From the NCBI GenBank assembly GCA_965226795.1, contig CBDDDZ010000002.1, positions 544,001 to 608,000 on the forward strand: a DNA stretch of 64,000 nucleotides. The letters run 5' to 3'. The stretch is from Candidatus Latescibacterota bacterium. Lineage in GTDB: Bacteria > Latescibacterota > UBA2968 > GCA-2709665. A program made the translations under genes and the position numbers. The notes beneath the pieces are model-generated. The model did no database searches. It worked only from the letters and a program-made list of their open reading frames with translations, and was not told where the DNA came from. This document shows, one piece after another, positions 28,579 to 47,653 of the stretch (the first letter of the stretch is position 1; the number at the start of each line of letters is the position of its first letter).

Positions 28579-28805
28579 CGAAACGTGGTCATTGAGCTTG
28601 TCGAAATGCCCGCGTTTCGGTACCCTTCGACTGGCTCAGTGTCCGGCACAGGGGGCACCGACCCTTGTCGTTCGACAGCCCTTCGCCGACCCTTCGACAA
28701 GCTCAGGGAGCGGCTCAGGGTGCCGGCCCAATGTCGTTAGTTGCGGGCCTTGCTTGCGTTGCCTGTGCTGGGTGCGTTGAGCCTGTCGAAACGCGCCCGT
28801 CGACC
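28579..28805. repeat. Cluster of TGAGCTTGTCGAA / TTCGACAAGCTCA palindromic repeats between pstC and pstA
   Basis: Several units in both orientations; shares longer stretches with 46615-46750, and short relatives lie at 18060-18102. Confidence 0.8.
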
Positions 28806-28875
28806 TTCCGGCCGATTTTCGGCGATATTTTCCGGGACAAAACATCAGGGATCACCAGCCTGAATGCGTCGGGAT

Positions 28876-31128
28876 TTATATTTGGCTGTACCGCTCCCGA
28901 AGCCGCTGCCGTACGATTTCCGCCAGGGTGTTGACGATGAACGTCACTCCTGCAAGTAGCAGACCGGTCAGAAAGAGGACCCGGTAGAGCGTTCCTTCGT
29001 GCGGCGCCTCGGGGATTTCCACGGCAATATTGGCCGACAGGGTGCGCATCCCGTTGAAGATGCTCCAGTCCATAATGGGCGTATTTCCGGTGGCCATCAG
29101 GACAATCATCGTTTCGCCGACCGCCCGTCCGAATCCAATCATTGTCGCCGAAAAAATGCCCGGGCTGGCGGTGGGGAGCACCACGCGAACGGCCGTCTGC
29201 CACGGGGTGGCGCCCAGCGCCAGGGATCCGGCCCTCAGGTGTGACGGTACGCTTGTGAGCGCGTCGTCGCAAATCGTATAGATGATCGGGATCACCGCAA
29301 AACCCATTGCGAAACCCACAACCAGGCAATTCCTCTGGTCGTAGCGGGTGCCGGCGGCATCCGCCAGCCAGCGCTGAAAATTACCGCCCCAGAATGCGCC
29401 TTCCAGCAACGGCCCGAGCGCCAGCGCCAACCAGATACCCAGAAGGGTCACCGCCACGTAGAACGCCTCCGGTCCCGGCAACCGGTTCTTCACGCACCCG
29501 GGCAGACGGGACCAGACCCAGGACGCCGCGATAACCGTCAGGGCCACCGTTGGCAGCAGCAGCAAGACGCCTACCACCTGGCGTTCCAGCAACGGCGCCA
29601 GCCATAGACCGCCCAGAAAGCCTAGAATCACGCTTGGCAGCGATGCCATCAACTCCACCATCGGTTTCACCACATTTCGCACGCGCGGGTGAGCGAACTC
29701 GGACGTATAGATGGCGGCGAGAACCGCCAGCGGAAGAGCGAAAAACATTGCATAAAACGTCCCTTTCGCGGTGCCATACGCTAGAGGAATGATGCTCATC
29801 TTGGGCTCGAATTCGTCGGTTCCGCCGGTGGACTGCCAGACGAACTCAGGTTCGGTGTATCCCTCGTACCACACTTTTCCAAACAGCGTTTTCAGTGTCA
29901 CTTCAGGATGCGGATTGGATAGCGCATAGTGGTTCAAACGACCGTCGGCGTGAAGGCTCAGGAACCCGTCTGCTTTGGGCGCGAACGTCAGATCGGTCAC
30001 CTCCGATCCATCCGCCAGTTCGAAAAACGTCTGGCCGGACGTCATGTGGTGCAACATCAGGTGTCCACCGACGCTGCCGGTCAAAAACTGTTTGTCACGC
30101 GCGGACGGGGCAATCGCGTTCACCGCCGTGCGATGTGGCCGAAAATCGTGGATTTTTTGAAACGTCCCGCGGATATTGCCGCGTGGTCCGCGCACGGGGA
30201 ACCACGTACTTACGTGTCCACGGGCGTCACCCACGACCACCGATACGTCGCCAAGCAGAAACGCAAGGGCTGTAATCGCGTGGTCCGAAGCACGAAAGCG
30301 CTGAACGAGTGATGGAGGTGTCTTGAGGTTGGATATATTCCAGAAATACACCTCTCCACGGTCCGTCCCCGCCAGAAGTTGACGACTGTTCCCTTGAACC
30401 ACCACGGCCGTTGGCCTGCCGTCAACCGCATCGGTCAATTCGTAAACGAATGATTCCTGCTTACCCCCGCCCGGCAGCCCCCTCTTTTTCTGTCTGCCCG
30501 CCACCAGTAGCCGGCCGGACGCCGTGATCCCCGCCGCAGTGGAGCGCCGCACCCCGTCCGCACCATATGAGACCTGAGCGATGGGTTCGCCTCTCCGGTC
30601 CAGCGCTATGTTATCCAGAACCTGAAACTCGGGTGTGACCCTGCGCTTACCATCCGGATAATCCACCCGATAATTCACCTTCGCCAGAGCAATGCGGCCA
30701 TCCGACATTCCCAGACCCAGGTGCCCGTCCGTAAGCGAAGGATGGACCGATACGACGTGCCGGCCCCGAAATTCGTCGCCACGTTCCCGGCGAATCGTTT
30801 CTCCATTGATCAATCGGATAAAATCGATTCCTTCCGGTCGCACGACGTATCCGACATCGCGGTACGGATCGGTGCCCGCCGCAAGCGCCCGCTGGCCGTC
30901 GCTACCCTGCAGCGTGTGGCTATTTACAATCGTCGCCGGCGCCGGAGACAGGAACAGGGGAAAGGATTCACGAAGCACAAAAGCCAGAATGCCCAGTACC
31001 ACCAGGATCACCCCCACACCGCCCACGGCGATCACCCAACGGCCCAGACGGTCCATAGTGCGTGCCGTGGGCGTGATGCCGGGAAGCGACCGGGGTTTTC
31101 CTGGATCGGTATTCTTCGGTTGCGCCAT
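28876..31128 (-). CDS. pstC: Phosphate ABC permease PstC with beta-propeller-like extracytoplasmic domain
   Basis: KVWYEGY..P.FVWQS, VELMASLPSVILGF and GRAVGETMIVLMATGN. Confidence 0.93.
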   Translation of the reverse strand: MAQPKNTDPGKPRSLPGITPTARTMDRLGRWVIAVGGVGVILVVLGILAFVLRESFPLFLSPAPATIVNSHTLQGSDGQRALAAGTDPYRDVGYVVRPEGIDFIRLINGETIRRERGDEFRGRHVVSVHPSLTDGHLGLGMSDGRIALAKVNYRVDYPDGKRRVTPEFQVLDNIALDRRGEPIAQVSYGADGVRRSTAAGITASGRLLVAGRQKKRGLPGGGKQESFVYELTDAVDGRPTAVVVQGNSRQLLAGTDRGEVYFWNISNLKTPPSLVQRFRASDHAITALAFLLGDVSVVVGDARGHVSTWFPVRGPRGNIRGTFQKIHDFRPHRTAVNAIAPSARDKQFLTGSVGGHLMLHHMTSGQTFFELADGSEVTDLTFAPKADGFLSLHADGRLNHYALSNPHPEVTLKTLFGKVWYEGYTEPEFVWQSTGGTDEFEPKMSIIPLAYGTAKGTFYAMFFALPLAVLAAIYTSEFAHPRVRNVVKPMVELMASLPSVILGFLGGLWLAPLLERQVVGVLLLLPTVALTVIAASWVWSRLPGCVKNRLPGPEAFYVAVTLLGIWLALALGPLLEGAFWGGNFQRWLADAAGTRYDQRNCLVVGFAMGFAVIPIIYTICDDALTSVPSHLRAGSLALGATPWQTAVRVVLPTASPGIFSATMIGFGRAVGETMIVLMATGNTPIMDWSIFNGMRTLSANIAVEIPEAPHEGTLYRVLFLTGLLLAGVTFIVNTLAEIVRQRLRERYSQI

Positions 31129-31181
31129 AGCCAAACCTTGCAGTTTCTCCCGCCGGACCGGGGAAGGGGTTCTCCTGCAGA

Positions 31182-32159
31182 CTAAATTCCCGCTGCTGCC
31201 AGCTTCGCCAGTTCTTCTTCAACGACTTCGTAGGGCACAGGCATATATCCATCCTTGATGACGATTTCCTGACCCTTTTTCGAGAAAATATACTTGCAGA
31301 ATTCGCGCACCATCGGGTCAAGGGGCTTACCCGGGGTTTTGTTGATGTAGATGAACAAAAAACGGCCCAGCGGATAGGAGCCGTCAAGTACATTATCCAT
31401 GCTGGCGTCTCTGAACCCTTCCTCCGGATTCTCCGCAAGCGGCACCACCCGCACGTCAGACGTCTTATATCCGATTCCACTGTATCCGATTCCGTATCGG
31501 TCTTCCGCCACACCCTGTACAACCGAAGCCGACCCCGGCTGTTCCTTCACTTCATCTTTGAAATCGCCCTTGAACAGCGCGTTTTTCTTGAAAAAGCCAT
31601 AGGTTCCTGAGGCCGAGTTTCGACCGTACAGACTGATTAACGCCGTTGCCGCCCCGCCCGTCCATCCCACCTGGCTCCACCGGACGATATTTTCAGGAAA
31701 TTCACCACGGCGGGTTTTGGAAAAAATCGCATCCACCTGTTCCAGCGTCAAGCCTCTTACAGGATTGTCTTTATTCACGAAAACCGCCAGCGCATCGAGA
31801 GCCGTTCTCAGCGGCGTGGGCGGGTACCCGAACGCGTTCTCGAACTTGTCAACCTCCGTTGCCTTCATTGAACGGGACATCGGACCGAACCGGGCCGTGC
31901 CTTTGATCAGCGCCGGAGGCGCCGTGCTGGACCCCTTTCCTTCGATCTGCACGTTTACGTTCGGGTAGTATTTGCGAAAACCCTCCAGCCACAGCGCCAT
32001 CAGGTTGTTCATCGTATCCGACCCGATGCTGCTGGCGCTTCCTGAAATCCCCCGCGCCGCTTTGTAGGCCGGAATACGAGGGTCGACCTCAATCGTCTGC
32101 GACCGAACGGGAACCGCGGTCAGCAGGAGCAACATTACACCGGCAACTGTTCGAATCAT
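31182..32159 (-). CDS. pstS: Phosphate-binding protein PstS
   Basis: RBS GGAGG, signal peptide, GSDTM, GKGSSTAPPAL and GRNSASGTY. Confidence 0.95.
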   Translation of the reverse strand: MIRTVAGVMLLLLTAVPVRSQTIEVDPRIPAYKAARGISGSASSIGSDTMNNLMALWLEGFRKYYPNVNVQIEGKGSSTAPPALIKGTARFGPMSRSMKATEVDKFENAFGYPPTPLRTALDALAVFVNKDNPVRGLTLEQVDAIFSKTRRGEFPENIVRWSQVGWTGGAATALISLYGRNSASGTYGFFKKNALFKGDFKDEVKEQPGSASVVQGVAEDRYGIGYSGIGYKTSDVRVVPLAENPEEGFRDASMDNVLDGSYPLGRFLFIYINKTPGKPLDPMVREFCKYIFSKKGQEIVIKDGYMPVPYEVVEEELAKLAAAGI

Positions 32160-32336
32160 CCGTCTACACCTCCCGATTTTCAGGGTGATTGTCTGAAGGA
32201 ATTCAGAGATCAATGTAAACCGCCAAGGTTACGTTTGTGTGCCAACAGGAGAGGGAGTCGAAATTTCGCCGGGCGGGCGATCCCGGGACCGACTATGGCG
32301 CGAGGGCTCCAGGCGTGGCAGCGGCCTCGACTCCAA

Positions 32337-33712: not shown

Positions 33713-35957
33713 ATGACCAACCTGGACGGAAGGTTCAGTCTCAGCCTGCCCGTGGGAACGCACAGCATCGAGATTTCATACGTATCCTACGCCTCGAAAA
33801 CGGTAACCGGTGTCGAGGTCCGCGCCGATCAGCCGTTTCAGCTAAGTGAAGCCCTTACGCCCGAAGCGATCGAAGTAGAAGCGATTACGGTGACGGCCAG
33901 GCCGGAGCGGTCCAGCGAAGTCTCAATGCTGGTCATCCAGCAGAAGGCCGGTGTTGTCACGGACGGCATCAGTTCGGAACTTGATGAGCAAGGCCTCCTC
34001 CTCCGACGCCGGAGATGCGCTTAAGCGTGTCACGGGCATCACGGTGGTCGGAGGGCGATACGTTTACGTGCGCGGCCTGGGTGAACGTTACAGCAATACG
34101 CAGGTCAACGGGGCGCAGATGCCCAGCCCCGAGCCGAACCGCCGCGTCGTTCCTATGGATATTTTCCCGGCCGGACTCCTGGAAAACATCCAGGTGGCCA
34201 AGACCTTCTCTCCCGACCAGCACGGCGATTTTTCCGGGGGATCGGTCCGGATCAGAACCAAGGATTTCCCGGACCAGTTGACGCTTTCGCTTTCGGCCTC
34301 CACCAGCTTCCATTCCCAAACCAGCTTTGAAGATATACAGACCTACCCAGGCGGATCCTGGGATTTCATCGGCATCGACGACGGCGGGCGCAACCTGCCC
34401 GATCTGGTTCAAACCCAGGCCGCCGAGCAACCGGTCCGCAAACGCGGGCGTTTTTCCACGACGGGGTTTACGAGTGACGAGATCCAGACCCTCGGTCGTG
34501 CTTTCACCAATGTCTGGTCGCCCGAGACCCGGACGGCACCGCTCAACCAGAGCTACGGCTTCAGCGTGGGGAATGCCGTTTCTTCCGAAAACCGGGAACT
34601 GCGTTTCGTCCTGTCCCTCATTTATGATAATAGCTTCAAGAACCGGAGCCAGGAATGGAATAGCTACCGCCTCACGGCCAAAGACGGTCAGGAATTCCTC
34701 TCCCCGTTTACCAGTTACACGGTCAGCGGCACCACGAACAATGTCCTGTGGGGCGCCCTTTTTAACAGCAGCTTCCGATTCTCGCCGCTTCACAAGATAA
34801 GCCTGAAGACCCTCTATAATCGTAACACCGATGACGAGGCCCGCGGCTATACCGGGTTCAATTCCGACCGCGGCACCGACCTTCGCAACTTCAGGCTTCG
34901 CTATGTGCAGCGCAGCGTTTTTACCGGGCAGCTTGGAGGCGAACACCACATCGACCCCCTCTTCAGATCCAACCTGAACTGGCAGGTCGGCTTTGCCGAA
35001 GCAACGAGAGGCGAACCCGACAACCGCGAAGTCGTCTACGAAATGCGTAATCAGGTGTGGACCTTTTTCGACATTACCCAGAGCGGCAGCCGTTTTTATT
35101 TCGATCTCGCCGATACGGAATGGAGCGGCAAGCTCGACTGGACCGCCCCGTTCACCTCGCCGGCCGGCCTTCCCGAAAAGTTCAAGGTGGGCGGCCTCTG
35201 GCGAAAAAAAGACCGCAGTTTCGACGCCCGCCGGTTCCGCTTGTAAACAGTCCAGCGGCATCCAGCGGCACGTGGATCTTACCGCTGACCCCGAAGCTAT
35301 TTTCGCAGAGGGAAATATCGCTCCCGGGCGGTTTGAGCTGCGGGAAACAACCCGGTCTAACGACAACTACTCGGCAAAACAGGATCTCTGTGGCGGGCTA
35401 CATGATGGTGGACATGCCCGTATCCGCGGCCTGGAGGCTGGTGACCGTTTTGAGGGTCGAATCCTCCAGGCAGGAACTGAGATCTTTCGATCCGTTTGCC
35501 CTCAATTCCGTGCCAATTGTCGTTGTGCTGGACAATACCGACTTCCTGCCGGGCGTGAATCTGGTTCGCCGCCTTTCCGACCGGTCCAATCTGCGGGCGG
35601 CCTACTCCCGAACCCTGGCACGGCCCGATTTCCGGGAACTGGCCCCGTTCGAATTCACCGACTTCGTGGGCGGCAGGGCGGTTGTGGGCGACACCTTACT
35701 GACCCGTACCGTGGTGGACAACTTCGATCTCCGCTGGGAAATCTTCCCCAGGCTGGGCGAGTTGGCGGCTTTCAGCGTTTTCTACTAGAAATTCCACGAC
35801 CCCATCGAGCAGATCATCCAACCCACCGCCCAGCTCCGCGTCAGTTTCGCAAATGCCGCTTCGGCCAACAACTACGGCGTCGAATTCGAGTACCGCCGCA
35901 GACTCGACGCCCTCGTGCCGGACCTGGAGAAATTTTCGGTGAGCGCCAATGTCACAC
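33713..35957 (+). pseudogene. TonB-dependent receptor pseudogene
   Basis: ALKRVTGITV, YVRGLGERY, YSRTLARPDFRELAPF and NFDLRWE. No signal peptide, frameshifts near 33980, 35243 and 35395, an in-frame TAG at 35786 and a missing 3' end. Confidence 0.88.
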
Positions 35958-37422
35958 TACGTTTGGCACTCTTCATCGTCCTGGCGCTCGGCCTTCCCGC
36001 CATGATTCAGGCGCAAACCGTCTCGAATGCCCGCGTCGATTTCGACGGCGACGGGACAATCGGATTCGGCGACTTCATCCTGTTCGGACAGAATTTCCAG
36101 TCGGACCATCCGATGTTCGACCTGAGCGGCAATGGCACGGTGGATTTTCCGGACTTTGTCGCATTCGCGAGCGTCTTTGGCCAGACGGTCGTGCAGGTTG
36201 AAGCCCCCAGGATGTCTTGGGCAACATCACGTCAGACGACGTATGGACGTCGGATCGAGACGATCTTCTCTCGGGTCCGGTCTTTGTGCAGGACGGCGCT
36301 ACACTGATCGTTATACCCGGCACAACGATCAGTGGCGAAGGGGCGTCGCAGGGCACGCTGATTATCGCACAGGGCGGGAAGCTCATCGCCGACGGAATCC
36401 CTCGAAACCCGATCGTGTTCACCAGCGATCAATTTGAGGGGGAACGCGACCGTGGCGACTGGGGCGGTCTGATCGTCAATAGCCGCGCCCCGATCAACAC
36501 GGGCACAACGGCTTTCGGTGAGGGCGACACGGGCGAGTATGGCGGCACGGATCCGGAGGACAACAGCGGCATTCTGTGCTACGTGCGCGTGGAGTTCGCG
36601 GGTATCGAGTTTTCGCCGGACAACGAATTGAACGGCATCGCCTTCCAGGGTGTAGGCTCGGGCACGGTGGTGGATTACGTACAGGTGCATTTCAACCAGG
36701 ACGACGGCATCGAGTTTTTCGGCGGCACGGTAAACGCGAAGCACCTGTATTGCACGGGGATCCGTGACGACTCGTTCGACCGGACGGACGGCTGGGTGGG
36801 GAAAGGTCAGTTCTGGGTGGGGCAGCAGTGCGGCGACGCCGCGGACAACGGGTTCGAGTCCGAGACAACAACGAAGCGACGCCGCGGTCGAATCCGACGA
36901 TCTACAACGTGACGCTGGTGGGGGACCCGGACGGGCCGAAGAGCGACACGGGGTTGGTGCTGCGTGAGGGCACGGCGGCGACGCTGAGGAACTTCATTGT
37001 GATGGGCTTCAACGCGAGCGGTCTGGACATCGATACGGAGTCGTCCATCACGCTGGCGAACAACGGGGACTTGTCGGTACAGAACTCGATTTTCTTCAAT
37101 AACGCCGCCGTCGACGATCAGGGCGTACGCACGTTGAGCAACTTCAGCGGTGACGGCGACGGGATCGACGAGGGTTCGTGGGCGACGACGTCGGGCTTCA
37201 ACAACTCGGAGTCGGACCCGGATCTGCGCGCACCGTATAGTCTGCGTTCGCCGAGTTACCAGCCATCGTCCTCGTCGCCAGCGGTGGACGGAACGGTGCC
37301 GGTCGCGAGCCCGCCTTCGGACGGGTTCTGTCGACGCGGTGGACTTCATCGGCGCGATGAGCGCGGACGACGACTGGCTGGCGGGGTGGATCACCACGGA
37401 GCAGCCCGCCGCGGCTCCATAG
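35957..37422 (+). pseudogene. Secreted protein (EF-hand/dockerin-like tag plus beta-helix-like domain) pseudogene
   Basis: Signal-peptide remnant LALFIVLALGLPAMIQA, DFDGDGTIGFGDF, NPIVFTS, GDWGGLI, DNSG, YVRVEFAG and DDGIEFFGGTVN; frameshifts near 36210, 36865 and 37330. Confidence 0.8.
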
Positions 37423-37627
37423 ACACATTCCCGGAAACGGAGGAATAGAAGGGGAGGAAACCTCGCTCCCCTCCCCCTTAGAAACCGGACAGGCTCGCAC
37501 GGAGCGTGACCGCTTCATCGCCTGTTCGGTCTTCCTTGTTTTTTATACCGATTCAACGTATTATTATTGGGTGGACACAATGCTTTTTTTAAAAGCAGAA
37601 AGACACAGCCGTCGCAACTTGAACTTG

Positions 37628-38007
37628 ATGAAGATGCACATATTGTCCGGCGCGCTTGCCATCCTGCTGGCGGCGGGATGCGCCAAGGAAATTGGGGAGG
37701 CGGACTCGCCGGAGAGGCTGGCGCGTGCCGTCGTAGTCGCCCTCAACAAAGAAGACCGCGAGGCCCTTCACAGCCTGCGAGTCCAGAAGGAAGAGTACCT
37801 GAGAAGCATCCTTCCGGCGTTTCCGCCCATCGGTTTCTCGCCGGTATTCGATTTGAGAAGCCGGAGGAAACCTATAAGGGTCTGAAACTCCTTCGCGGGA
37901 CCGTCTTAACTGTGCAGACCAGAAAAGGCGAGCAAGTGGACCTGCGTATCCTCGGATCGGTAGTCCTCAGAGACGGCCGCCACAAGCTCCTGAGCTATGA
38001 CGACTGA
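37628..38007 (+). pseudogene. Frameshifted lipoprotein
   Basis: Lipobox LLAAGC in one frame; a plausible C-terminus (GIRFEKPEETY...KLLSYDD) in another frame, switching near 37830. Confidence 0.6.
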
Positions 38008-38668
38008 ACGAAATGTCCGAAGCGAAGCGCGAAACAGGCTGATGTCTCTGGGCATCGGCCTTCTGTTTATCGGGCCTGTACTCCCGCTCCAGGCAGCGGA
38101 ACTTTCGTCCGTTCCGAGCATGGATGAAATCCGTTCGCTTCCGGTTTCGCTGACGCCGCTCGAACGCGAGCTTCTTGCGGACGTCGGCGACGGCCGCCTG
38201 GACCGGTTCGATCTGATCGCGTCCGGCGCTACCGAACCCGTTCTCCTGTCCCGGTACAAGAGAAGCTTCCGACATCTCCAGCAGCACGCCCTGCTCTCCA
38301 TTCCCTATCTCATGCAGACTGAACAGATGGCCGCCGAACTGTTTCACTATCTCCACCGTTACGTACTCCGTCAATTCGAAACCCGTCCGGTCACCGTGAT
38401 CAACCTCTGGACGGATGGACGGTATAACTGCATCGCCGCCTCGCGGCTGTACGTCGCATTCCGAAACGCCCTCGGGGCCCAGCTTACACATTCGGAAGAC
38501 AAACAATACCAACAGCTTACGCTCGACTTGGGTTTGGCCTATGCGACCTTTCTCCGTCAACGGGGCGACCGCGCCGGCGAAAGCGGAATCATCGCCTATC
38601 TTCGCGGATTGAAAAAAAATGTCCGCGGCGCATATCCCCGGCGGACTCTGACGGAAGTCATCCGATGA
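37997..38668 (+). CDS. Hypothetical secreted protein
   Basis: Signal-peptide-like N-terminus; ATGA overlap with the CHAD gene. Confidence 0.55.
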   Translation: MTTERNVRSEARNRLMSLGIGLLFIGPVLPLQAAELSSVPSMDEIRSLPVSLTPLERELLADVGDGRLDRFDLIASGATEPVLLSRYKRSFRHLQQHALLSIPYLMQTEQMAAELFHYLHRYVLRQFETRPVTVINLWTDGRYNCIAASRLYVAFRNALGAQLTHSEDKQYQQLTLDLGLAYATFLRQRGDRAGESGIIAYLRGLKKNVRGAYPRRTLTEVIR

Positions 38669-40200
38669 AAAACAAAGTATGTGCGCTGCGCCTGCCGGCA
38701 TCGATTGATTCGCACAGGGTATGGGAGGAGGCCGCCCGTTCCCATGCCAGCGAACCGATAGAGGATACAGAGCAGGTCCAGACCTTCCTCGATACCTTCG
38801 ACTGGCGCCTTTTCAACAGGAACATGGCTCTGCTGAAAGAAAAGGATCGCTACCTCCTCTACAGCCTGCCAAACCGTGAAACCGTCGCATCGCTCAGCCT
38901 GCCGCGTGGAACCGAACCGGTATTCAGCGCGGATTTTCCCGAGGGGCCATTCAAGAAGACCCTGCAAGCACATTTGAGCGTACGGGCGCTGTTACCGCGC
39001 GCGCGCGCCAGGACCCGCCGGCAGACCATGCGCGTCCTCAACAGGAATGAAAAGACCGTCCTCATCGCAACGCTTGAACAGGCCAGGGTGACGGACACCG
39101 CGCGTACCGAACAACCGTTCAACACGCTCTTGTTGCGGCCGATCCGGGGATATGAGAAACATCTGCGCAGACTGAACCGGTCCCTGCGAGAAGCCGGGGC
39201 CGAACCCCAAACCGAAGACCTGTTCCACGCCGCAGTGCGGGCGACCGGCAGGAGACCGGGAGACTATACTTCAAGACTCAATATCGCGCTTGAACCGGAT
39301 CTGACGGGCGCAGAGGCTGCGAGGCGGATTCTGGGGCTTCTGTTCCGAACCATCAGATGCAATGAAGCAGGGATAAAAGAGGACATCGATACGGAGTTTC
39401 TGCACGATTTCAGGGTGGGTATCCGGCGCACCCGGTCGGCGCTCGGTCAGATCAAATCCGTTTTTCCCGAAGCCCGTGTTGCCCGCTTCCGGAATGACTT
39501 TTCCTTTCTCGGCAAACTCACCAACCGCCTGCGAGACCTGGACGTCGCCTTGCTCAGGCAGGACGCGTACCGCCTTCTCCTGCCGGGATATCTGCGGCCT
39601 CGACTGGACTCTCTCTTTGAATCCCTGCGGGCCGAACGTACGGGTGAACACCAACGCCTATCCGCCGCCCTGGACGGCGACAGGTACTTGAAAATAGCCA
39701 CCGACTGGGAGGCGTTTCTGGAATGCCCGCCGGAGTCCGGATCGCCCGACAACGTCGATGTGCCGGCGACGGGGCTGGCGCAGAGGTTTATTGGAAAGAG
39801 ATACGGTCGCGTGATCGCAATGGGAACCGCAATCGATGAGGCAACGCCCGACGCCGACCTGCATCGGCTTCGGATTGAGTGCAAGAAACTACGCTACCTC
39901 CTCGAGTTTTTTTCGTCGCTTTTTCCCGTGGAAGAGATCCGGCTGATTGTCGAGCACCTGAAGAGCCTGCAAGACAACCTGGGCGACTTCAACGACCTCT
40001 CCGTTCAACAGGCAGACCTGAAGACGTACCTGGAAGCGTTACCGGCCGAGAGGGCTCAACCGGAAACCTTTGCCGCTATCGGCGGGCTGATCGGCTGCCT
40101 TTGCCGTGAGCAGCAGACCGTCCGTGCGGCCTTTTCAAAGACGTTTGCGCAATTCAACCGGGCGGAGGTCGCCGCGACGTTCCGACGTCTGTTCGTCTGA
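38665..40200 (+). CDS. CHAD-domain polyphosphate-binding protein with N-terminal CYTH-like region
   Basis: EFLHDFRVGIRRTRS, LRDLDV, LHRLRIECKKLRY and LQDNLGDFND. Confidence 0.9.
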   Translation: MKNKVCALRLPASIDSHRVWEEAARSHASEPIEDTEQVQTFLDTFDWRLFNRNMALLKEKDRYLLYSLPNRETVASLSLPRGTEPVFSADFPEGPFKKTLQAHLSVRALLPRARARTRRQTMRVLNRNEKTVLIATLEQARVTDTARTEQPFNTLLLRPIRGYEKHLRRLNRSLREAGAEPQTEDLFHAAVRATGRRPGDYTSRLNIALEPDLTGAEAARRILGLLFRTIRCNEAGIKEDIDTEFLHDFRVGIRRTRSALGQIKSVFPEARVARFRNDFSFLGKLTNRLRDLDVALLRQDAYRLLLPGYLRPRLDSLFESLRAERTGEHQRLSAALDGDRYLKIATDWEAFLECPPESGSPDNVDVPATGLAQRFIGKRYGRVIAMGTAIDEATPDADLHRLRIECKKLRYLLEFFSSLFPVEEIRLIVEHLKSLQDNLGDFNDLSVQQADLKTYLEALPAERAQPETFAAIGGLIGCLCREQQTVRAAFSKTFAQFNRAEVAATFRRLFV

Positions 40201-40218
40201 CCATTTAGAGCGCATTCT

Positions 40219-40968
40219 ATGCCAACAGTCGCCCTGTACAACATCAAGGGCGGGGTGGGAAAGACCGCCACGGCTGTAAATCTGGCCTACCTCGCCGCAC
40301 ACGACGGCGCACAGACCATTCTGTTCGATCTGGACCCCCAAGGATCGGCCGCGTTTTATTTTCGCATCAATCCCTCCAAAAAACTCCCGGGTCGAATATT
40401 CGTCCGCGGGGGCCGAAGGATTGAGAAGCGCATCAGAGGCACCGACTACGAAAACCTGGATCTGCTGCCGTCTAACCTGTCATTCAGAAACCTGGACACG
40501 ATTCTGAGCAGATTGAAACGCTCCTCGAAGCGGCTCGATCGCATTCTGAAGCCGTATCTGAAGACATACGACTACATCTTTCTGGACTGTCCGCCCGGTA
40601 TTGGCCTGGCGTCGGAAAATATGCTTTTCGCCTCTGACATCGTCCTGGTGCCGTGTATCCCAACCACGCTGTCCATGCGGACCTATGACCAGCTGTTGCG
40701 GTTCTGTCATTCCAGACACCTGGATGTCTCCCGGATCCACCCGTTTTTCACCATGGTCGAGAAACGGAAACGGATGCACAGCGAACAGCTGGCAACCAGT
40801 AGAGATCTGGAAGACGGTTTTCTGGATACGCAGATACCCTACGCTTCGGAAGTCGAGAAAATGGGCATCCACCGAAAACCGGTGCCCTGCTTCGCGCCGG
40901 GTTCGCCCGCCTCAAACGCGTATCAGGATCTTTGGGATGAACTGAAAGCCATGGCTTCGAAACGTTGA
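40219..40968 (+). CDS. ParA/MinD-family ATPase with no adjacent parB
   Basis: Deviant Walker A KGGVGKT, DLDPQ and DCPPG. Confidence 0.92.
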   Translation: MPTVALYNIKGGVGKTATAVNLAYLAAHDGAQTILFDLDPQGSAAFYFRINPSKKLPGRIFVRGGRRIEKRIRGTDYENLDLLPSNLSFRNLDTILSRLKRSSKRLDRILKPYLKTYDYIFLDCPPGIGLASENMLFASDIVLVPCIPTTLSMRTYDQLLRFCHSRHLDVSRIHPFFTMVEKRKRMHSEQLATSRDLEDGFLDTQIPYASEVEKMGIHRKPVPCFAPGSPASNAYQDLWDELKAMASKR

Positions 40969-41076
40969 CAGGTGATAACACAGCCCATCAAACCCCCGCG
41001 CCGTAAAGACTTGCAAACCTGATTCCGTTTGACTCCTGCCTTGTGTTGGCTTATCTTGAGCCGAATGCAGGTATCG

Positions 41077-43194
41077 ATGACTCCAATTAACCACGAGAAA
41101 CGCGTCATGAACCTGGACGATCCAAAACTCTATACCAACCGGGAAATCTCCTGGCTTCGCTTTAACGAACGCGTCCTCGAAGAAGCCCGGGACCCGAAAA
41201 ATCCACTGCTGGAGCGCGTGAAATTCCTGGCGATCGTCGCCAACAACCTGGACGAGTTCTTCGAAATCCGTGTCGCAGGATTGCTTCAGCAGATGGAAGC
41301 CGGCGTACACGATGCCGGCCCCGACGGGCTTTTGCCGGAAGAACTGTTCGAAGTCGTTTCCGAAGAAGCCCATCGGATGGTCGACGAACAATATGCCTGC
41401 TGGAACCAAGAGCTTTTGCCCGCGCTGAAAGAGGCGGACGTGCATATCCGTTCGTCGCAAGACCTCGAACCTGCCGAACAGGCATTTATCCGGGATTACT
41501 GGTTGAGGGAACTCCATCCGGTTCTGACGCCCCTCACCGTCAACCCGGCCCATCCCATTCCGCGCGTGGTAAACAAGTCGCTTTGCCTGGCCGTATTGCT
41601 CAAGGACAGTAAGGGTGACACCTTATTCGGCGTGGTTACGGTTCCGCGCATGTTGCCGCGTCTCATCCGCTTGCCCAGGGACGACGAGGGCCGGCGCGTG
41701 GATTACGTGTTTCTGGCCGACCTTGTGCGGGCCCACATCCCGGAGCTGTACAGAGGGTACGAGATCCTGGGTACCGCCGCTTTTCGTATCACGCGCAACA
41801 GCGACCTTTACCTCGATGAAGAAGAGGCCGACGACCTGCTCCTGGCCATTGAAGATGAACTCAAACGCAGACGCAAGGGCGATACCGTCCGGCTGGAAAT
41901 CGACGCCGCGGCGCCGAGACAGATCGAACGGCGACTTCGGGCCATTTATAATCTGGGCGAGAAACAGGTTTACCGGGTGAACGGTCCGGTCAATCTCAAT
42001 CGCCTCATGATGCTCTACGGGGCGACGCGGCGTCCGGACCTGAAGGACGCGCCGTACCATCCTGCGGAGTATCCCTTTGCCGAAGACCCCGACCATCTTT
42101 TCGCCGAAATCCGCCAGCGGGACATTCTGTTACATCATCCGTACGACTCATTCCATCCGGTCATTCAGTTTGTCCAGTCCGCCGCGCGGGATCCGGACGT
42201 CCTGGCCATTAAACAGACGCTGTATCGCACCACCGCGGACTCTCCCGTCATGGACGCTTTGCTCAAGGCAGCGGAGGCGGGCAAAGAGGTTACCGTGATT
42301 GTGGAACTCAAAGCCCGCTTCGACGAAGCTTCCAACATCCGATGGGCGCGGCAACTACAGGATGCAGGCGTCTACGTCGCCTACGGCGTGGTTGGCCTCA
42401 AGACCCACTGCAAGCTCTCCATGCTGGTCCGGCGCGAAGCCAATGGCCTCCGCCGCTACGCCCATATCGGTACCGGAAACTACAATGCATCGACGGCGCG
42501 GGTGTACACGGACCTGGGTCTGATGACCGCAAGGGAAGACATAACCAGCGACGTTGCCGAGGTATTCAACCTGCTCACCACCCAGTCAGATTGTCCTGAA
42601 GTCAAGAAGCTGCTTGTTGCGCCCTTCAATATGATGGATTCCATCCTGGCGAAAATCGATCGGGAGATTGAACACGCCAGGGCCCGGCGACCGGCACGCA
42701 TTGTCTGCAAAATGAACTCGCTTCAGGATGCAAAGGTCGTGAAAGCGCTTTACAGAGCCGCACAAGGCGGCGTGGACGTCGACCTGATCGTCCGCGGGAT
42801 CTGCAGCATCCGCCCGGGCATCCCCGGAATCAGCGACCGGATTCGCGTGAGAAGCATTGTCGGGCGTTACCTCGAGCACAGCCGCATCTACATGTTCGAG
42901 AACGGATCCAATCCCGAGATATACATCGGCAGCGCGGACTGGATGCCTCGTAATCTGCGTCGACGCGTGGAAATCCTCTGTCCCATAGAAGACCCGGTTC
43001 TTATCCGGAGAATCCAGTCCCGGATTCTCTCCCCGTGCCTGGCGGACAATATCAAGGCCCGTGAGCTTCTTCCAGACGGCGACCATCGCCGCGGAGGGGC
43101 CTCGAACGGACGGACGGCCATTTCGTCGCAGGAGATCCTGATGGGGCTGGCCAGAGGAGAACAATTCGACATCCCGGACCCGCCGCCCGTTTGA
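41077..43194 (+). CDS. ppk1: Polyphosphate kinase 1
   Basis: NREISWLRFNERVL, LLHHPYDSF, ELKARFDE, KTHCK, GRYLEHSR and SADWMPRNL; start 41077 or 41107. Confidence 0.96.
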   Translation: MTPINHEKRVMNLDDPKLYTNREISWLRFNERVLEEARDPKNPLLERVKFLAIVANNLDEFFEIRVAGLLQQMEAGVHDAGPDGLLPEELFEVVSEEAHRMVDEQYACWNQELLPALKEADVHIRSSQDLEPAEQAFIRDYWLRELHPVLTPLTVNPAHPIPRVVNKSLCLAVLLKDSKGDTLFGVVTVPRMLPRLIRLPRDDEGRRVDYVFLADLVRAHIPELYRGYEILGTAAFRITRNSDLYLDEEEADDLLLAIEDELKRRRKGDTVRLEIDAAAPRQIERRLRAIYNLGEKQVYRVNGPVNLNRLMMLYGATRRPDLKDAPYHPAEYPFAEDPDHLFAEIRQRDILLHHPYDSFHPVIQFVQSAARDPDVLAIKQTLYRTTADSPVMDALLKAAEAGKEVTVIVELKARFDEASNIRWARQLQDAGVYVAYGVVGLKTHCKLSMLVRREANGLRRYAHIGTGNYNASTARVYTDLGLMTAREDITSDVAEVFNLLTTQSDCPEVKKLLVAPFNMMDSILAKIDREIEHARARRPARIVCKMNSLQDAKVVKALYRAAQGGVDVDLIVRGICSIRPGIPGISDRIRVRSIVGRYLEHSRIYMFENGSNPEIYIGSADWMPRNLRRRVEILCPIEDPVLIRRIQSRILSPCLADNIKARELLPDGDHRRGGASNGRTAISSQEILMGLARGEQFDIPDPPPV

Positions 43195-43269: not shown

Positions 43270-45141
43270 CTATGCAATCGGTAGGGTGAAGCCGAACGTC
43301 GCCCCGGCGCCGAGTACACTCTTCGCGTAGACCCGTTCCCCGTGGGCCTCAATGATATGCCGGACAATCGAAAGCCCCAGACCGGTTCCACCCAGGCTTC
43401 TGGAGCGCCCCTTGTCCACCCTGTAAAACCGTTCGAACACCCGCGGCAGCGAATCCGACGGGATCCCGATACCCGAATCCACGACTTCCAGAGCCACACG
43501 TTCGACCGCCGCGACCGGCCTCGAATCCCCGGCCGGATGGCCGGCGCCCGTTTCCAGAATAAACCGCGGTTCGTTCTCCGCATCCGCACCCGCGAAAACC
43601 GCATCCGTACCCAGCCGCCTGGCAGCCACCCACACCTGCCCGCCTTGAGGTGTATATTTCACGGCATTGTCGAGCAGGTTGACCACGGCCTGTTCAATCA
43701 ACTTCGTGCTGCCGCGGACCGTCAGTTCATCCTGAACCGTAATCGCAACCGCAATGCCCTTGCCTTCGGCCTGCTGCCTGATTGAATCGTACGCCCGGTC
43801 CACCACCGTTCGGATTGCGAAATCTTCCATTTCAATCGCCAGCCTGTCGGACTGCAGCCGCGAGAGATCGAGCAGATCTTCCAGCAGCAATTGGAGCCGG
43901 TCTGAATGCGCGAGTATGGTCTGCACAAACCGTTCGGCGGTTGCGCGGTCTTCAAGCGCGCCCTCGGCCAGCGTATCCGCACACCCCTTGATGGCCGTGA
44001 GAGGCGTTCTTATTTCGTGGGAAACATTTGCCACGAAATCCGTGCGTGCCCGCTCCAGCCGGTGCAATTCGGTCATATCGTAGAAGACCGCCACCACACC
44101 CGTCCCCCCGCCCTCCCGGCGAATGGGTCCCACGTGCACGTCGAAATGGCGTTCCGGCAGACCGGACGTCGTCATTATCTGCGTCCGGGCGTCGCCGGTT
44201 TTCAGGGTGTGTTCGATTGCCTCCTGAACCTGCACGTCACGGATCATTTCCACCGGCGGCCGGCCTTCCGTGGGCGGCATCACGCCGAAAAACCGCTCGA
44301 AGGTGTGATTGGTCAGCAGAACGCGGCCGTCGCGCCCCGTGACAAGGATGCCCACGGTAATGTCCGACAGGATCGTCTCCAGACGGGATTTTTCCGCAAC
44401 CATATCCGCGAAACGGTCGCGGATATTCTGCCGCGCCGAATCCAGAGTTCGTGCCAGATCCTTAATTTCCCGGGAAAAAGCAACGGCCGGCACCTCGTCA
44501 TCGAAGTTACCCGCTGCCACTGAGCGCGCAACCTGCGTCAGTTTCTCTATTGGCCGCGAGACATATTGCGAGACGTTGTAGGACAGCAGCAGCGCCAGGG
44601 CCAACCCCAGCGCGGATGCCGTCCACATCGTGCGGTTGACGCGATCCTGGAGTTGTCCCACGTGCGTCAGCGGCGCGGCCAGCCGCAGCACCACCCGCCC
44701 GCCCTCCGGCCCTTGAACGGTTTTTGCCACATACAGCATATCCTGTTCGGGCGTTTCGCCGGAACGCATGTGTCGCCCAACCGAACCTTCCCACGCGGAT
44801 CGGACCTCAGGGCGGTCTGCCTGATTCGCCAACCGCGAAAGATCCTCCACGCGCACCTCCGAATCCCACAACACCTTCCCGGCGCCGTCAATAACCGTCG
44901 CACGAGCGTCCAGCCGCCGGCCGATCCGGTTCACGATCTCATTTACGGTTCCCGAAGTCGCGGCCTCTTCCCATTGGCCTGCAAGATAGTCAGCGGCCGT
45001 CCTGACCTCTTTCGTGAGTGCGTCCCGGCGTTGCGCCAGCAGGATATCCCGAATCGTACGGGTCAGATACATATGTACGGCCGCCATGGCCATTGCGACA
45101 ACCGCCATGCAGATCAACATCAGCCGCCAATGCAATCGCAT
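43270..45141 (-). CDS. phoR: PhoR-type sensor histidine kinase (TM-HAMP-PAS-HisKA-HATPase)
   Basis: DFVANVSHEIRTPLT, NLLDNAVKY, DSGIGI and FYRVDKGRSR..GGTGLGL; ATG 45141. Confidence 0.9.
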   Translation of the reverse strand: MRLHWRLMLICMAVVAMAMAAVHMYLTRTIRDILLAQRRDALTKEVRTAADYLAGQWEEAATSGTVNEIVNRIGRRLDARATVIDGAGKVLWDSEVRVEDLSRLANQADRPEVRSAWEGSVGRHMRSGETPEQDMLYVAKTVQGPEGGRVVLRLAAPLTHVGQLQDRVNRTMWTASALGLALALLLSYNVSQYVSRPIEKLTQVARSVAAGNFDDEVPAVAFSREIKDLARTLDSARQNIRDRFADMVAEKSRLETILSDITVGILVTGRDGRVLLTNHTFERFFGVMPPTEGRPPVEMIRDVQVQEAIEHTLKTGDARTQIMTTSGLPERHFDVHVGPIRREGGGTGVVAVFYDMTELHRLERARTDFVANVSHEIRTPLTAIKGCADTLAEGALEDRATAERFVQTILAHSDRLQLLLEDLLDLSRLQSDRLAIEMEDFAIRTVVDRAYDSIRQQAEGKGIAVAITVQDELTVRGSTKLIEQAVVNLLDNAVKYTPQGGQVWVAARRLGTDAVFAGADAENEPRFILETGAGHPAGDSRPVAAVERVALEVVDSGIGIPSDSLPRVFERFYRVDKGRSRSLGGTGLGLSIVRHIIEAHGERVYAKSVLGAGATFGFTLPIA

Positions 45142-46604
45142 CTCACTCGCCTTCCTCCGGCGAATCCATTGAACTCGTCCAGGAACCACTCGGCTTGCTT
45201 TGTCATAAAGACGCCGATTTCCTCCCCCTTGAAGGCGAAAGATATCCTGAGCCCTCCAAGGTAAATATCCGTGATGTAGACTTCCATGTTGAGCGTCTGT
45301 GCGTCGATCCACGCGGCCGATGCCAGGCAATCGTATTCGATGCCGGGGACCGAGCCGATCTGTTCGCCGAAGTAGCCGCGTTGAGGGAACTTGCCCGGCA
45401 GCACGCGTCCGATACCGAACCGCAGCACATTGTCGCCCTGACCGTTGATGTACTCCCAGGCGCCTTCATCCTCCTCTAACGACAGGCGCATCCGCGTGAT
45501 CCCCATCGGGTTGTCATCCAAAGCATACCACGCTCCGTTGACTTCCGAAGCCGCCCTTGCGTCGGGGTCCCCCGGGATCGGCAGGACTGCCAGCCGCTCG
45601 ATCTTATCGCAGAGTTCCTCGTGGGCGTCACGGTTCTCCGGAAGCGGCGCATCTGAAAGGTGGGGGTAGAGTTCCTCCCGCATCACGGAAGGAATGGCGC
45701 TGCCGGCCGGCGCGCCCTGTGTGTCGGCGATGCAGGTGAACAGAAACTCCCTTTCGGGGAAACAGATGGCGTACTGACTGCCCATCCCGCGGAAGGAGAA
45801 TCCGTTCTCTTTATCGCGCCAGATCTGATATCCATACCCGCAGTTGCCCCGGATCGTGTTGTCGATTTGCCTGGAGGTCGCGGCACACACGTACTCTTCC
45901 GGCAGGACCCTTTCATCGCCCCACATACCGCAGTTCATGCAGGTGAGTGCGACTCTGGCCAGATCGCGAAGCGTACAGATCACCCCCGATCCGCCCCACG
46001 ACACACCCTCGGGCGTGCGGATGCACCATGCGTCAGCGGAGAATCCGATCCGGTCCAGAAAACGCGGTCGCATATAATCCAGAAAGGGAATACCGGCAAG
46101 CCGTTCGACCGTGGCCGTAAGCACGACGGTTGCCGCGGTGTCGTACGAGAAGATCGTTCCGGGAGGATGCGAGGGGATCCGGTTGAAGAAGGTCCAGACC
46201 CAGTCCGGGTCGTTGCGTGTATAGGAGTTTCTCGAATGGGGGGTCGACATCGTCAGGAGATCCCGGACGGTCGAGGCGGAAAGCCAGGGATGAAGGTTTT
46301 CCGGAAGTTTGTCCGGGAAGTATTCGGCGACCCGATCGTCGAGCGCGAGCCTGCCTTCGTCGACCATCATCCCCACCGCCAACGCGACAAAGCTCTTGCT
46401 GACCGAATACATCCGGTGTTTGCGCTCAACCGACCACGGGGACCAGTATCCCTCAGCAGCAATTCTGTTGTGACGCACCAGCAGGAACCCGTGCATACAG
46501 ATTCGCTCGGAATCGATCCGCTGCAGGAAATTCAGGATCGCCCGCGAAGGGATTCCCTGGCTTTCAGGTGAGGGCATCGTTGTAAACACTTTTTCGCTTT
46601 CCAT
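45120..46604 (-). CDS. Serine hydrolase, beta-lactamase family
   Basis: SxxK motif YSVSKS, TVRDLLTM, PGTIFSY and YGYQIW. Confidence 0.88.
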   Translation of the reverse strand: MESEKVFTTMPSPESQGIPSRAILNFLQRIDSERICMHGFLLVRHNRIAAEGYWSPWSVERKHRMYSVSKSFVALAVGMMVDEGRLALDDRVAEYFPDKLPENLHPWLSASTVRDLLTMSTPHSRNSYTRNDPDWVWTFFNRIPSHPPGTIFSYDTAATVVLTATVERLAGIPFLDYMRPRFLDRIGFSADAWCIRTPEGVSWGGSGVICTLRDLARVALTCMNCGMWGDERVLPEEYVCAATSRQIDNTIRGNCGYGYQIWRDKENGFSFRGMGSQYAICFPEREFLFTCIADTQGAPAGSAIPSVMREELYPHLSDAPLPENRDAHEELCDKIERLAVLPIPGDPDARAASEVNGAWYALDDNPMGITRMRLSLEEDEGAWEYINGQGDNVLRFGIGRVLPGKFPQRGYFGEQIGSVPGIEYDCLASAAWIDAQTLNMEVYITDIYLGGLRISFAFKGEEIGVFMTKQAEWFLDEFNGFAGGRRVRCDCIGG

Positions 46605-46614
46605 ATCGGCTCCA

Positions 46615-46750
46615 TGAGCTTGTCGAAACGTGGTCGTTGCCCGTGCTGAGCTTGTCGAAATGCCCGCGTTCAGCTATCCGTTCGACACCCTTCGCCGACG
46701 CTTCGACAAGCTCAGGCGACCGCAGGTTCAGGGAGCGGCTCAGGATGCCG
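46615..46750. repeat. Second TGAGCTTGTCGAA / TTCGACAAGCTCA repeat cluster
   Basis: Shares TGAGCTTGTCGAAATGCCCGCGTT, CCCTTCGCCGAC and CAGGGAGCGGCTCAGG with 28579-28805. Confidence 0.8.
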
Positions 46751-46757
46751 CCTCATC

Positions 46758-47465
46758 TCAAGAGCGTTCGCCCATGAATCGATAGCCAACGCCCCGAACC
46801 GTCTCCACCATTTCGCTCGCGCCGCCCAGTTTCTCTCTCAATCGGCGAATGTGCGTATCCACCGTCCGGCCATAGCCGGCGTAGTCGTAACCCCAAACCG
46901 TATTCAGCAGTTCCTCACGCGACTGCACGCGCCCCCTGCGTTCGGCCAGTGTAACGAGCAAACTGAATTCGGTGGATGTCAACGCCAGCACGTCGCCGCT
47001 CACGGTTACCCGGTGGGCGGCCTGATCGATGGTGAGCGGTCCGAATCTCATCGCTTCCGGATCGGACTCGGTCGTCGCCGAGTCCCGCCCCTCCTCCAAC
47101 CGCCTCAGGATGGCCTGGATACGGAGCACCAGTTCGCGGGGCGAGAACGGCTTTACGACATAGTCGTCCGCTCCCAGTTCGAGCCCCACGACGCGGTCCA
47201 CCTCCTCGGCGCGCGCCGTTAGCATCAGAATAGGCAGATCGCGGGTGGCTGCATCCTGCTTTAGCAGCCTGCACACTTCCAGGCCGTCTATTCCCGGCAG
47301 CATCAGGTCCAGCACGACCAGGTCCGGACGCCCCTGCCGAATCTGATCGAGGGCCTCCTCGCCCGTTTCGACGGCGGCTACCGAAAAACCAGCCTTCTCA
47401 AGATTGTAAGAGACGATCTCCTGAATATCGACTTCGTCTTCAACCACCAGAATATTGCCTTTCAT
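46758..47465 (-). CDS. phoB: PhoB/OmpR-family response regulator
   Basis: VVEDE, LDLMLP, GADDYVVKPF, RTVDTHIRRLR and TVRGVGY; context of phoR, pst and ppk. Confidence 0.88.
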   Translation of the reverse strand: MKGNILVVEDEVDIQEIVSYNLEKAGFSVAAVETGEEALDQIRQGRPDLVVLDLMLPGIDGLEVCRLLKQDAATRDLPILMLTARAEEVDRVVGLELGADDYVVKPFSPRELVLRIQAILRRLEEGRDSATTESDPEAMRFGPLTIDQAAHRVTVSGDVLALTSTEFSLLVTLAERRGRVQSREELLNTVWGYDYAGYGRTVDTHIRRLREKLGGASEMVETVRGVGYRFMGERS

Positions 47466-47653
47466 GGTTGTCCTCGTATAAGCAACGGACCCGTCGCCCG
47501 GCAAGGAATCGAGACGTCATCTCCTCGGTGAAATGTAATATACAAAAAGGAAAAAAATGGGCAATCCTCCAGAGCATTTATAGGACCGCCGGCGAAAAAA
47601 TCCGAAATACCATCTCGAAGGAAATCAACGAAACAAAAAGGCAATCCGAATGA

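Follow-up and report, generated by a model that had tools for sequence, protein, structure and literature searches.

In the McdA/McdB system an orphan ParA-type ATPase acts together with a cargo-binding partner according to a nucleoid-gradient logic (PMC13556221, PMC13052382), a scheme that the gene pair described here would resemble, with the differences that its cargo would be an inorganic polymer, that its partner protein joins a CYTH fold to a CHAD domain, and that McdA reaches only 56 bits against the profile of the ATPase clade. Spacing of polyphosphate (polyP) granules can be ParA-independent, as the granules of S. elongatus are spaced without McdAB, which according to the available text of that report does not position polyP (PMC13556221). 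The same text calls the mechanism of granule placement undefined, and the available part of another report lists its ATP dependence as unknown (PMC13052382), both papers dating from 2025-2026. In Pseudomonas aeruginosa, polyP granules depend on AlgP for their even spacing (PMC13052382, PMC9239181); this protein differs from the present pair in being a DNA-binding tether, for which the accessible portion of PMC13052382 likewise leaves ATP dependence as unknown and identifies no ATPase. CHAD proteins (phosins) are given no role apart from polyP binding in the available sections of PMC10892726, and the portions at hand of the literature on them hold no description of an ATPase partner. The only published mention that was found is a ppk-parA-CHAD gene order, namely an Acidithiobacillus folD-ppk-parA-(CYTH-)CHAD neighbourhood in which parA is drawn between ppk and the CHAD gene (PMC10892726, PMC6416229). 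As far as the text of these papers is available, the accounts are descriptive and read ParA as a partition protein. The Acidithiobacillus locus also differs in that its CYTH domain retains the active-site residues and that parA precedes CHAD, and its ATPase may be the second, short type of ParA that we also found beside CHAD.

The locus analysed here lies in a 64,000-nucleotide stretch of DNA (the window) from a Candidatus Latescibacterota bacterium, and its features are collected in Table 1. A sequence-only reading had described a CHAD gene, a ParA/MinD ATPase gene and ppk1, separated by 18 nt and about 110 nt and co-oriented inside a cluster of phosphate genes, with neither parB nor minE. 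The spacings were measured as 18 nt and 108 nt. Co-orientation applies to the three genes among themselves and not to their surroundings, where pstS-pstC/A-pstB-phoU (25271-32213) and phoR/phoB (43270-47504) run on the opposite strand. As had been noted, ParB and MinE are missing: tblastn with the genome's own ParB as query matched nothing in the window, nor anything at the 79 related loci, and no MinE was found in the 96%-complete genome, whose soj-parB pair sits on a different contig. The ppk1 product scores 918 bits against TIGR03705 (NCBIfam cut-off 466). A promoter-like site before ppk1 (41029-41057) was discarded, since such sites occur at chance level (3 found vs 2.4 expected). Two upstream ORFs (37567-38007 and 37997-38668) have no Pfam or NCBIfam match and were left outside the system, being patchy and fragmentary in close relatives and missing from distant loci.

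Table 1. Features of the locus, in window coordinates (genes from the ORF listing of the window)
Feature	Position	Strand	Remark
Protein of 511 aa with pseudo-CYTH and long CHAD parts; predicted adaptor for polyP granules	38665..40200	+	
N-terminal CYTH/TTM-fold domain, residues 1-200, without ExExK; predicted ParA-docking domain	38665..39264	+	
Hairpin N128-E129-K130-T131; predicted contacts to ParA 48-51 and 76; K130 invariant	39046..39057	+	
Loop I160-R161-G162-Y163; predicted contacts to ParA 72-74 and 81	39142..39153	+	
CHAD domain with H247, R250, R254, R290, R410, Y411	39265..40194	+	Residue mapping from alignment
Orphan ATPase (249 aa), ParA/Soj-like and from a distinct, basic clade; K10, K15, D37, D39, D123 intact	40219..40968	+	
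Predicted partner site on ParA, F48-R49-I50-N51; aligned with L50-G51-F52 of HpParA (loop L23)	40360..40371	+	
Predicted partner site on ParA, I72-D81 (RGTDYENLD); D76 aligned with Q79 of HpParA (loop L34)	40432..40461	+	
Basic patch K182-R183-K184-R185, with R183 aligned to R182 of T. thermophilus Soj (DNA-patch residue)	40762..40782	+	
ppk1, ordinary polyphosphate kinase 1; frequent, optional neighbour	41077..43194	+	

At the level of polyP binding, the CHAD domain of the first gene product is recognized by PF05235 (Pfam, residues 222-450, E 1e-55) and resembles polyP-bound CtCHAD of C. tepidum (6QVA), with 40% identity and a TM of 0.94 (Foldseek). Residues H247, R250, R254, R290, R410 and Y411 align with CtCHAD H253, R256, R260, R296, R418 and Y419, which mutant data in this Chlorobium relative tie to polyP binding in the available text (PMC6537752). 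All six equivalents are present, each conserved in 111-112 of 112 proteins, so that the protein combines the PF05235 fold with the basic polyP-cavity residues of the polyP-binding class. Describing the gene as CHAD alone had overlooked a 200-residue N-terminal domain, modelled by AF2 with a pLDDT of 93 as a TTM barrel and matched by Foldseek to YgiF (5A60, E 1.5e-10) and to TTM enzymes (E about 1e-4). E. coli YgiF has the same CYTH-CHAD architecture; the CtCHAD construct, as far as its description is available, comprises residues 208-522, so that some 200 residues precede it at the N-terminus, a length matching the window protein. The ExExK motif is the N-terminal metal-binding motif of active CYTH/TTM enzymes. 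It is absent from the window protein, which has no Pfam CYTH match, and its pattern occurs in only 2 of 61 full-length rows. What sets this domain apart from CtCHAD and YgiF, besides the lack of ExExK, are clade-specific K130 and RGY motifs: in the alignment of adjacent pairs K130, G162 and Y/F163 are found in 112/112 and K/R161 in 108/112, and K130 is missing from three pseudo-CYTH-CHAD proteins of genomes without this ParA.

ParA/MinD ATPases are defined by a deviant Walker A with a signature lysine, an aspartate pair in switch I and a Walker B aspartate. The corresponding residues (K10, K15, D37, D39, D123) are kept in 112/112 ParAs of the same alignment. The signature lysine (K10 of KGGVGKT) and the basic patches EKRKRMH (181-187) and IHRKP (217-221) of the sequence-only reading are all in place. 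The protein matches AAA_31 (E 3e-35) and stays beneath all NCBIfam cut-offs, with 78 bits against ParA_partition (cut-off 180) and MinD models far below threshold; ESM Atlas returned generic ParA names only. Its chain ends 10 residues past W239, like that of T. thermophilus Soj, and C-terminal tails in 61 relatives are short (7-27 aa) and unconserved, from which it follows that there is no MinD-type membrane helix, as had been supposed. With such a tail in place of the C-terminal amphipathic helix of MinD, no MinE found and MinD models far below cut-off, this ParA does not match a MinD, and with no ParB found in the window or the related loci it does not match a chromosomal or plasmid ParABS system either. 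Its nearest solved sequences are Soj/ParA proteins (the HpParA-ParB N10 complex and TtSoj, 87-121 bits), with which it shares length and the Walker A signature; in contrast to those, it has no ParB nearby, and the clade has a median net charge of +8 vs -6 for the genome's own Soj.

The CHAD-ParA pair is encoded back to back in many bacterial phyla. The proposed check of its linkage turned out positive: of 79 related loci, 76 carry CHAD immediately upstream of ParA, as do 60/60 informative loci of a distant branch (those whose sequence extends 600 nt or more upstream, all absent from the alignments), and the ATPase is thus an orphan that has an adjacent partner of its own. Genes overlap or lie at most 25 nt apart in 64 of 75 pairs, and the ParA and CHAD trees agree (patristic r 0.87), with 39 of 56 supported ParA splits found again in the CHAD tree. 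The wider setting is linked as well, since 60/79 loci have a ppk1, ppk2, SixA-like or CYTH gene nearby. The membership of ppk1 in the module did not hold up: the gene is nearby in 40/79 loci, went undetected at all 80 loci from another branch, and agrees less well in its tree (in 33 loci with ppk1, Spearman 0.82 for ParA-CHAD vs 0.51 for ParA-PPK1). The core unit consists of two genes, those of the pseudo-CYTH plus CHAD protein and of the orphan ParA. An apparent CHAD-ParA fusion (P0093) was set aside, its CHAD being truncated and followed by non-homologous sequence resembling frameshift read-through.

In an even sample of 251 genomes from the class of G001, CHAD linkage was observed in 21 of 30 clade-bearing genomes. 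Fisher tests on this sample (p 2e-16 and 5e-12) were given no weight, because kin are non-independent and the pseudo-CYTH profile derives partly from the same genomes. The clade is patchy (5/121 in a phylum sample around G002; 1/151, the centre genome only, around G004), and 52 of 78 CHAD-bearing genomes lack this ParA. No CHAD was found in 12 of 23 selected genomes holding clade members, and thus the clade does not always depend on CHAD. There are partner-less members with unrelated neighbours, and around a copy on a Marinobacter plasmid CHAD is missing for 4 kb, as expected if linkage were mere co-regulation within phosphate-starvation clusters and ParA served another cargo or the chromosome, not binding the CHAD protein. 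This explanation is very improbable, given that stop and start codons overlap in 27/75 pairs, that the pair is retained in the 80-locus branch, where phosphate genes were not detected, and that the predicted complex and the decay of its interface, described below, speak against it.

Prediction of the ParA-adaptor complex, suggested by the sequence-only reading, passed its controls, with a score of 0.61 and a best control of 0.00; the score mark is reached by 116/157 solved pairs and 2/215 mismatched pairs, counts that hold only roughly for the alignments used here and the 2+1 job. Three runs scored 0.25, 0.64 and 0.61, with at least 59% of contacts in common and a partner pLDDT of at least 83. 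In the model, built without ATP, a small interface on one protomer brings the hairpin with K130 and the loop with RGY onto ParA residues 48-51, 72-76 and 81, coinciding with the invariant residues of the pseudo-CYTH domain. K130 is predicted to lie at ParA residues that align to L50-F52 and Q79 of HpParA, in the available text the site of Helicobacter ParB Arg9 (PMC11229316), a site that the prediction could favour by reproducing solved ParA-ParB complexes. The CHAD protein had been proposed as the adaptor; the protein is predicted to dock, with the pseudo-CYTH domain as its docking part and no CHAD-domain residue in the confident interface. The model thus predicts docking by the pseudo-CYTH domain, while CHAD would hold polyP. 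R49 and D76 are kept together in 108/112 adjacent pairs and in 4/4 ParAs with the partner elsewhere in the genome, vs 1/20 ParAs where no pseudo-CYTH was found. Among 68 conserved positions, retention in 19 partner-less rows is lowest at the interface (R49 0.16, F48 0.32, D76 0.32; mean elsewhere 0.84). A tree-aware analysis of co-decay counted 6 changes and only 3 supported independent pairs (median p 0.5).

Tight gene pairing and predicted docking at the ParB site of ParA make a putative machine for the spacing of polyP granules the likely reading, held with moderate confidence. CHAD would coat the granules, and the pseudo-CYTH domain would dock on ParA and trigger ATP hydrolysis, with K130 as the presumed stimulating basic residue. 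ATP-bound ParA dimers would hold DNA with a basic face that has been rearranged (K182-R185, R/K188, K214, R219), and their local release near granules may produce a McdAB-like gradient, by which granules would be distributed and passed on at division, the nucleoid being the most likely track. A different output, in which the ATPase would serve as a nucleotide switch, recruiting or regulating enzymes of polyP (PPK1, PPK2, CYTH phosphatase, SixA) at the granule and thereby controlling turnover instead of position, is unlikely. In its favour, genes for PPK1, PPK2, SixA and CYTH are common neighbours, ParA directly follows ppk1 with CHAD not adjacent at the loci L061 and L165, and among the top 150 representatives there are 7 ParA-CYTH fusions, 6 with ExExK. 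These fusions are confined to one clade and therefore count as a single event, however, while the enzyme neighbours differ between loci and went undetected across the 80 loci from one branch, and the domain predicted as partner is without the catalytic motif and would dock at the ParB-type activator site.

The nucleoid as track is the weakest step of the spacing model, because of the residues at the canonical DNA patch. In HpSoj, K227 and K230 (R215 and R218 in B. subtilis) are among four DNA-binding lysines, according to the available text (PMC6393308). Those two are replaced here by Y208 and E211, with Tyr and Glu/Asp in the clade and a basic residue in 0/112, and the HpSoj K247 position is basic in 30/112. 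New basic positions are near-invariant (R90 112/112, K/R184 111/112, K/R219 110/112), and R219 is retained in just 5/20 partner-less members, as if a ligand had left with the partner. These replacements would fit a version of the same pair and docking in which the ATPase surface binds polyP and not DNA, cycling on and off the granule to control nucleation, size or fusion. This version is rather unlikely; R183 (TtSoj R182) is still basic in 95/112 and position 188 (HpSoj K199) in 79/112, and the DNA-binding face varies among ParA-family proteins, as in pNOB8 ParA (PMC6393308, in the part available).

Returning to the spacing model, the pair may well be the first ATP-driven machine for positioning polyP granules, with a dead triphosphate-tunnel enzyme as ParB mimic that presents one invariant lysine to a dedicated ParA with a rebuilt binding face, the track possibly being polyP itself. 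If true, the ParA/MinD family would gain both a class of cargo and an activator fold that are new to it. The pair supplies a candidate ATPase and adaptor, with targets for point mutation on both faces of the predicted interface, and its culturable hosts include Paracoccus aestuarii DSM 19484 (genes JHW48_RS15835 and RS15840) and P. marcusii (on plasmids). Sulfur and sediment bacteria have it too, among them a record of Ca. Electrothrix (L060); thin filaments of cable bacteria are described, in the available text, with a single granule per pole (PMC9159916).

CHAD and ParA form a real and widespread two-gene module. The three ORFs of the locus, their intergenic gaps and the sequence motifs described in the sequence-only reading agree with ORF calls and family searches, and the genes are flanked by pst/phoU and phoR/phoB genes on the minus strand.

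Features of the locus and of related sequences
Feature	Position	Strand	Basis or remark
CHAD gene	38665-40200	+	ORF call, family match
ParA	40219-40968	+	ORF call, family match
ppk1	41077-43194	+	ORF call, family match
TonB-dependent receptor pieces and further fragmentary ORFs	33713-38668		between pst/porin genes and CHAD gene
Plug domain of TonB-dependent receptor	33951-35246		lies within this range, broken across frames
223-aa ORF	37997-38668		runs 4 nt into CHAD start
Second orphan ParA-like protein of the window's genome	C5:2109454-2110041		
Short ParA-like gene	L221:2709-3341		CHAD adjacent; SixA or ppk1 near
Short ParA-like gene	L226:4979-5635		CHAD adjacent; SixA or ppk1 near
Paracoccus plasmid run	L334:3299-6651		
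Paracoccus plasmid run	L335:3288-7249		
Marinobacter plasmid ParA copy	L336:4001-4747		

Residues 1-200 of the CHAD protein are predicted to fold as a CYTH/TTM barrel (pLDDT 93) with a structural match to YgiF (E 1.5e-10), and a Pfam search of this part gave zero matches. ExExK, the catalytic signature of CYTH enzymes, is absent from this pseudo-CYTH domain, in which K130 and G162 are invariant. For residues 201-510 the structural match is C. tepidum CHAD with bound polyP (6QVA; 40% identity, TM 0.94). According to the available text of PMC6537752, mutation of H253, R256, R260, R296, R418 and Y419 weakens polyP binding by C. tepidum CHAD; these align here with H247, R250, R254, R290, R410 and Y411, each conserved in 111-112 of 112 relatives.

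The nearest relatives of this ParA (82-90% identity) come from records titled Ca. Latescibacterota or Gemmatimonadota. CHAD lies directly 5' of ParA in 76 of the 79 nearest loci; in two exceptions (L016, L061) the long CHAD is encoded at another place in the genome, and the third (L076) is interrupted by a contig end. Among 75 measurable pairs, a count that leaves out L009 for its broken ParA call, 27 overlap and 37 more are at most 25 nt apart. These loci carry ten NCBI phylum labels in their record titles, some of them designating one lineage, with 10 unassigned. Since they are best matches, even samples were taken as well. In the class of genome G001 the ParA clade occurs in 30 of 251 genomes, with CHAD adjoining in 21 of the 30 and pseudo-CYTH in 18 of those 21; in the phylum of G003 it occurs in 49 of 201 (CHAD adjoining in 31 of the 40 examined, lowest-scoring included), in that of G002 in 5 of 121 (CHAD adjoining in 4, one convergent) and in that of G004 in 1 of 151, namely the sample centre. 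Relatives of the window's genome hold the clade in 33 of 41 cases and the pair in 5/5 examined, though in two of these five one gene is broken. Counting the other way round in the class of G001, without the sample centre and G233 and with a pseudo-CYTH profile built in part from these genomes, gave pseudo-CYTH with ParA in 18, pseudo-CYTH alone in 4 (including G042, flagged unpublished), ParA alone in 11 and neither in 216. In a distant branch (80 loci of one lineage, included in no alignment), CHAD is 5' in 60/60 loci with at least 600 nt upstream; nearly all its loci share the motifs of the main set, and the 80 gave no match to ppk1, ppk2, SixA or CYTH marker proteins.

The pair thus stands as the sequence-only reading had it, but ppk1 does not hold as its fixed third member: it is near in 40 of the 79 loci, SixA in 33, CYTH in 24 and PPK2 in 20. 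On these linkage counts the unit is CHAD plus ParA, the others being variable company. That the ATPase controls polyP enzymes, genes for which recur in this company, is a doubtful reading. The window's genome (96% complete) has a separate soj-parB pair and gave no match to MinE, nor to Ppx-GppA, though it holds ppk1 and two ppk2 genes; its SixA-like gene and both PPK2 genes sit away from the locus.

Prediction of a complex of two ParA copies with the full CHAD protein, the putative adaptor, scored 0.61 (runs 0.25, 0.64, 0.61), against 0.00 for the best of three controls; 116 of 157 solved pairs and 2 of 215 mismatched ones attain the mark, figures that are only rough for this job. The runs have at least 59% of contacts in common, with partner pLDDT of at least 83. 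The docking proposed earlier is therefore predicted, but not through CHAD: confident contacts join adaptor residues 123, 128-131 and 160-163, in pseudo-CYTH, to residues 48-51, 72-74, 76 and 81 of one ParA protomer. The model favours binding rather than showing it, and could be biased towards this ParA site, already known from solved ParA-ParB complexes; no ParA-CYTH complex was among the PDB matches of this analysis. Aligned by position to 8JMJ, ParA F48-R49-I50 corresponds to HpParA L50-G51-F52, and D76 to Q79. In the available text of PMC11229316 these HpParA residues hold ParB Arg9, so that adaptor K130 would stand in place of the activating Arg of ParB.

Retention of interface residues was compared in rows outside the alignments supplied to the complex model, with L076 left out for its truncated context. 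R49 and D76 are both retained in 108 of 112 adjacent pairs and in 4/4 ParAs whose genome holds a pseudo-CYTH-CHAD at another site. Where the genome, possibly incomplete, gave no pseudo-CYTH match, 1 of 20 ParAs retains both. For 19 of these 20, interface positions are retained at 0.52 versus 0.84 for other conserved positions. The pseudo-CYTH-CHAD proteins of three genomes without the ParA (G234, G107, G180) miss K130 and the RGY loop. Joint loss of interface residues and partner is suggestive, not established, because on the tree it amounts to no more than 6 changes, with 3 independent pairs supported (median p 0.5). ParA and CHAD patristic distances correlate across the 112 pairs (r 0.87), 39 of 56 supported ParA splits are found again in the CHAD tree, and Poribacteria and Chloroflexota copies cluster with Desulfobacterales copies in both trees. 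In 33 loci with ppk1 the Spearman correlation is higher for ParA-CHAD (0.82) than for ParA-PPK1 (0.51). Such agreement of trees speaks for co-inheritance, not binding, since kinship alone gives much of it. Mere co-regulation of CHAD and ParA is very improbable beside the predicted docking, and a physical partnership of the two proteins at the granule is highly likely.

As for the surface on which the ATPase would act, the DNA patch described in the available text of PMC6393308 comprises HpSoj K199, K227, K230 and K247, as well as TtSoj R182 and BsSoj R189/R218. A basic residue stands at the position of ParA R183 (TtSoj R182) in 95 of 112 sequences, at 188 (HpSoj K199) in 79, at 208 and 211 (K227, K230) in none and at 228 (K247) in 30; newly basic are positions 184 (111/112), 214 (93/112) and 219 (110/112), and net charge is +8. 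DNA binding by a surface other than the standard one is plausible from this pattern, with polyP as a genuine alternative. That polyP is the ATPase's own surface, with which the basic positions are also compatible, is unlikely. Among single mechanisms the spacing of granules on the nucleoid is preferred, with slightly better than even confidence. The pair would by prediction work like the McdAB system. No membrane helix was found in ParA, bearing out the earlier remark that no obvious MinD-like helix follows its core.

No functional study of the pair was found in the literature searched, the text of mostly open-access papers, in line with the earlier statement that such a system is not known to have been characterised. 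In their available text, PMC10892726 and PMC6416229 include parA in the ppk-CHAD cluster of Acidithiobacillus but do not connect it with granules, and PMC13052382 and PMC13556221 call the mechanism of polyP granule placement open; the main text of PMC9239181 contains no whole-word ParA, Soj or MinD. PMC6537752 Fig. 1B (the CtCHAD locus) and PMC10892726 Fig. S3 (a neighbourhood analysis) may either show the pairing.

A C-terminal CYTH domain occurs in 7 of the 26 longest among the top 150 ParA representatives (P0005, P0015, P0064, P0067, P0073, P0118, P0149; all one clade), with ExExK in 6/7. In a single case, P0002, a clade ParA is fused to a sucrose-phosphatase-like HAD domain (PF05116), which could be an assembly artefact. 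Two of the 39 further CHAD loci taken from the class of G001 have an unrelated short ParA-like gene (about 205 aa) next to CHAD, a hint that ParA-type ATPases were recruited to CHAD proteins more than once.

The pair occurs twice in one locus (L070, divergent) and twice in genome G001. Among plasmid matches to the clade 6/9 are from Paracoccus, two of them with a 62-aa gene, CHAD, ParA, CYTH and NUDIX in one tight run. The Marinobacter plasmid copy has lost R49 and D76, with phbB 4 kb away and no CHAD within 4 kb. A clade branch in the phylum of G003 (L147-L153, L176) has intact Walker motifs and unrelated neighbours; no pseudo-CYTH was found in these genomes, nor CHAD in 7/8. The window's genome encodes a second orphan ParA-like protein. 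Upstream of the CHAD gene, the 223-aa ORF gave no match in domain and family searches, and relatives hold only fragments of it; the TonB-dependent receptor region, mostly retained in two close relatives and left as scraps in others, suggests either an uptake cassette in decay or errors in the sequence.
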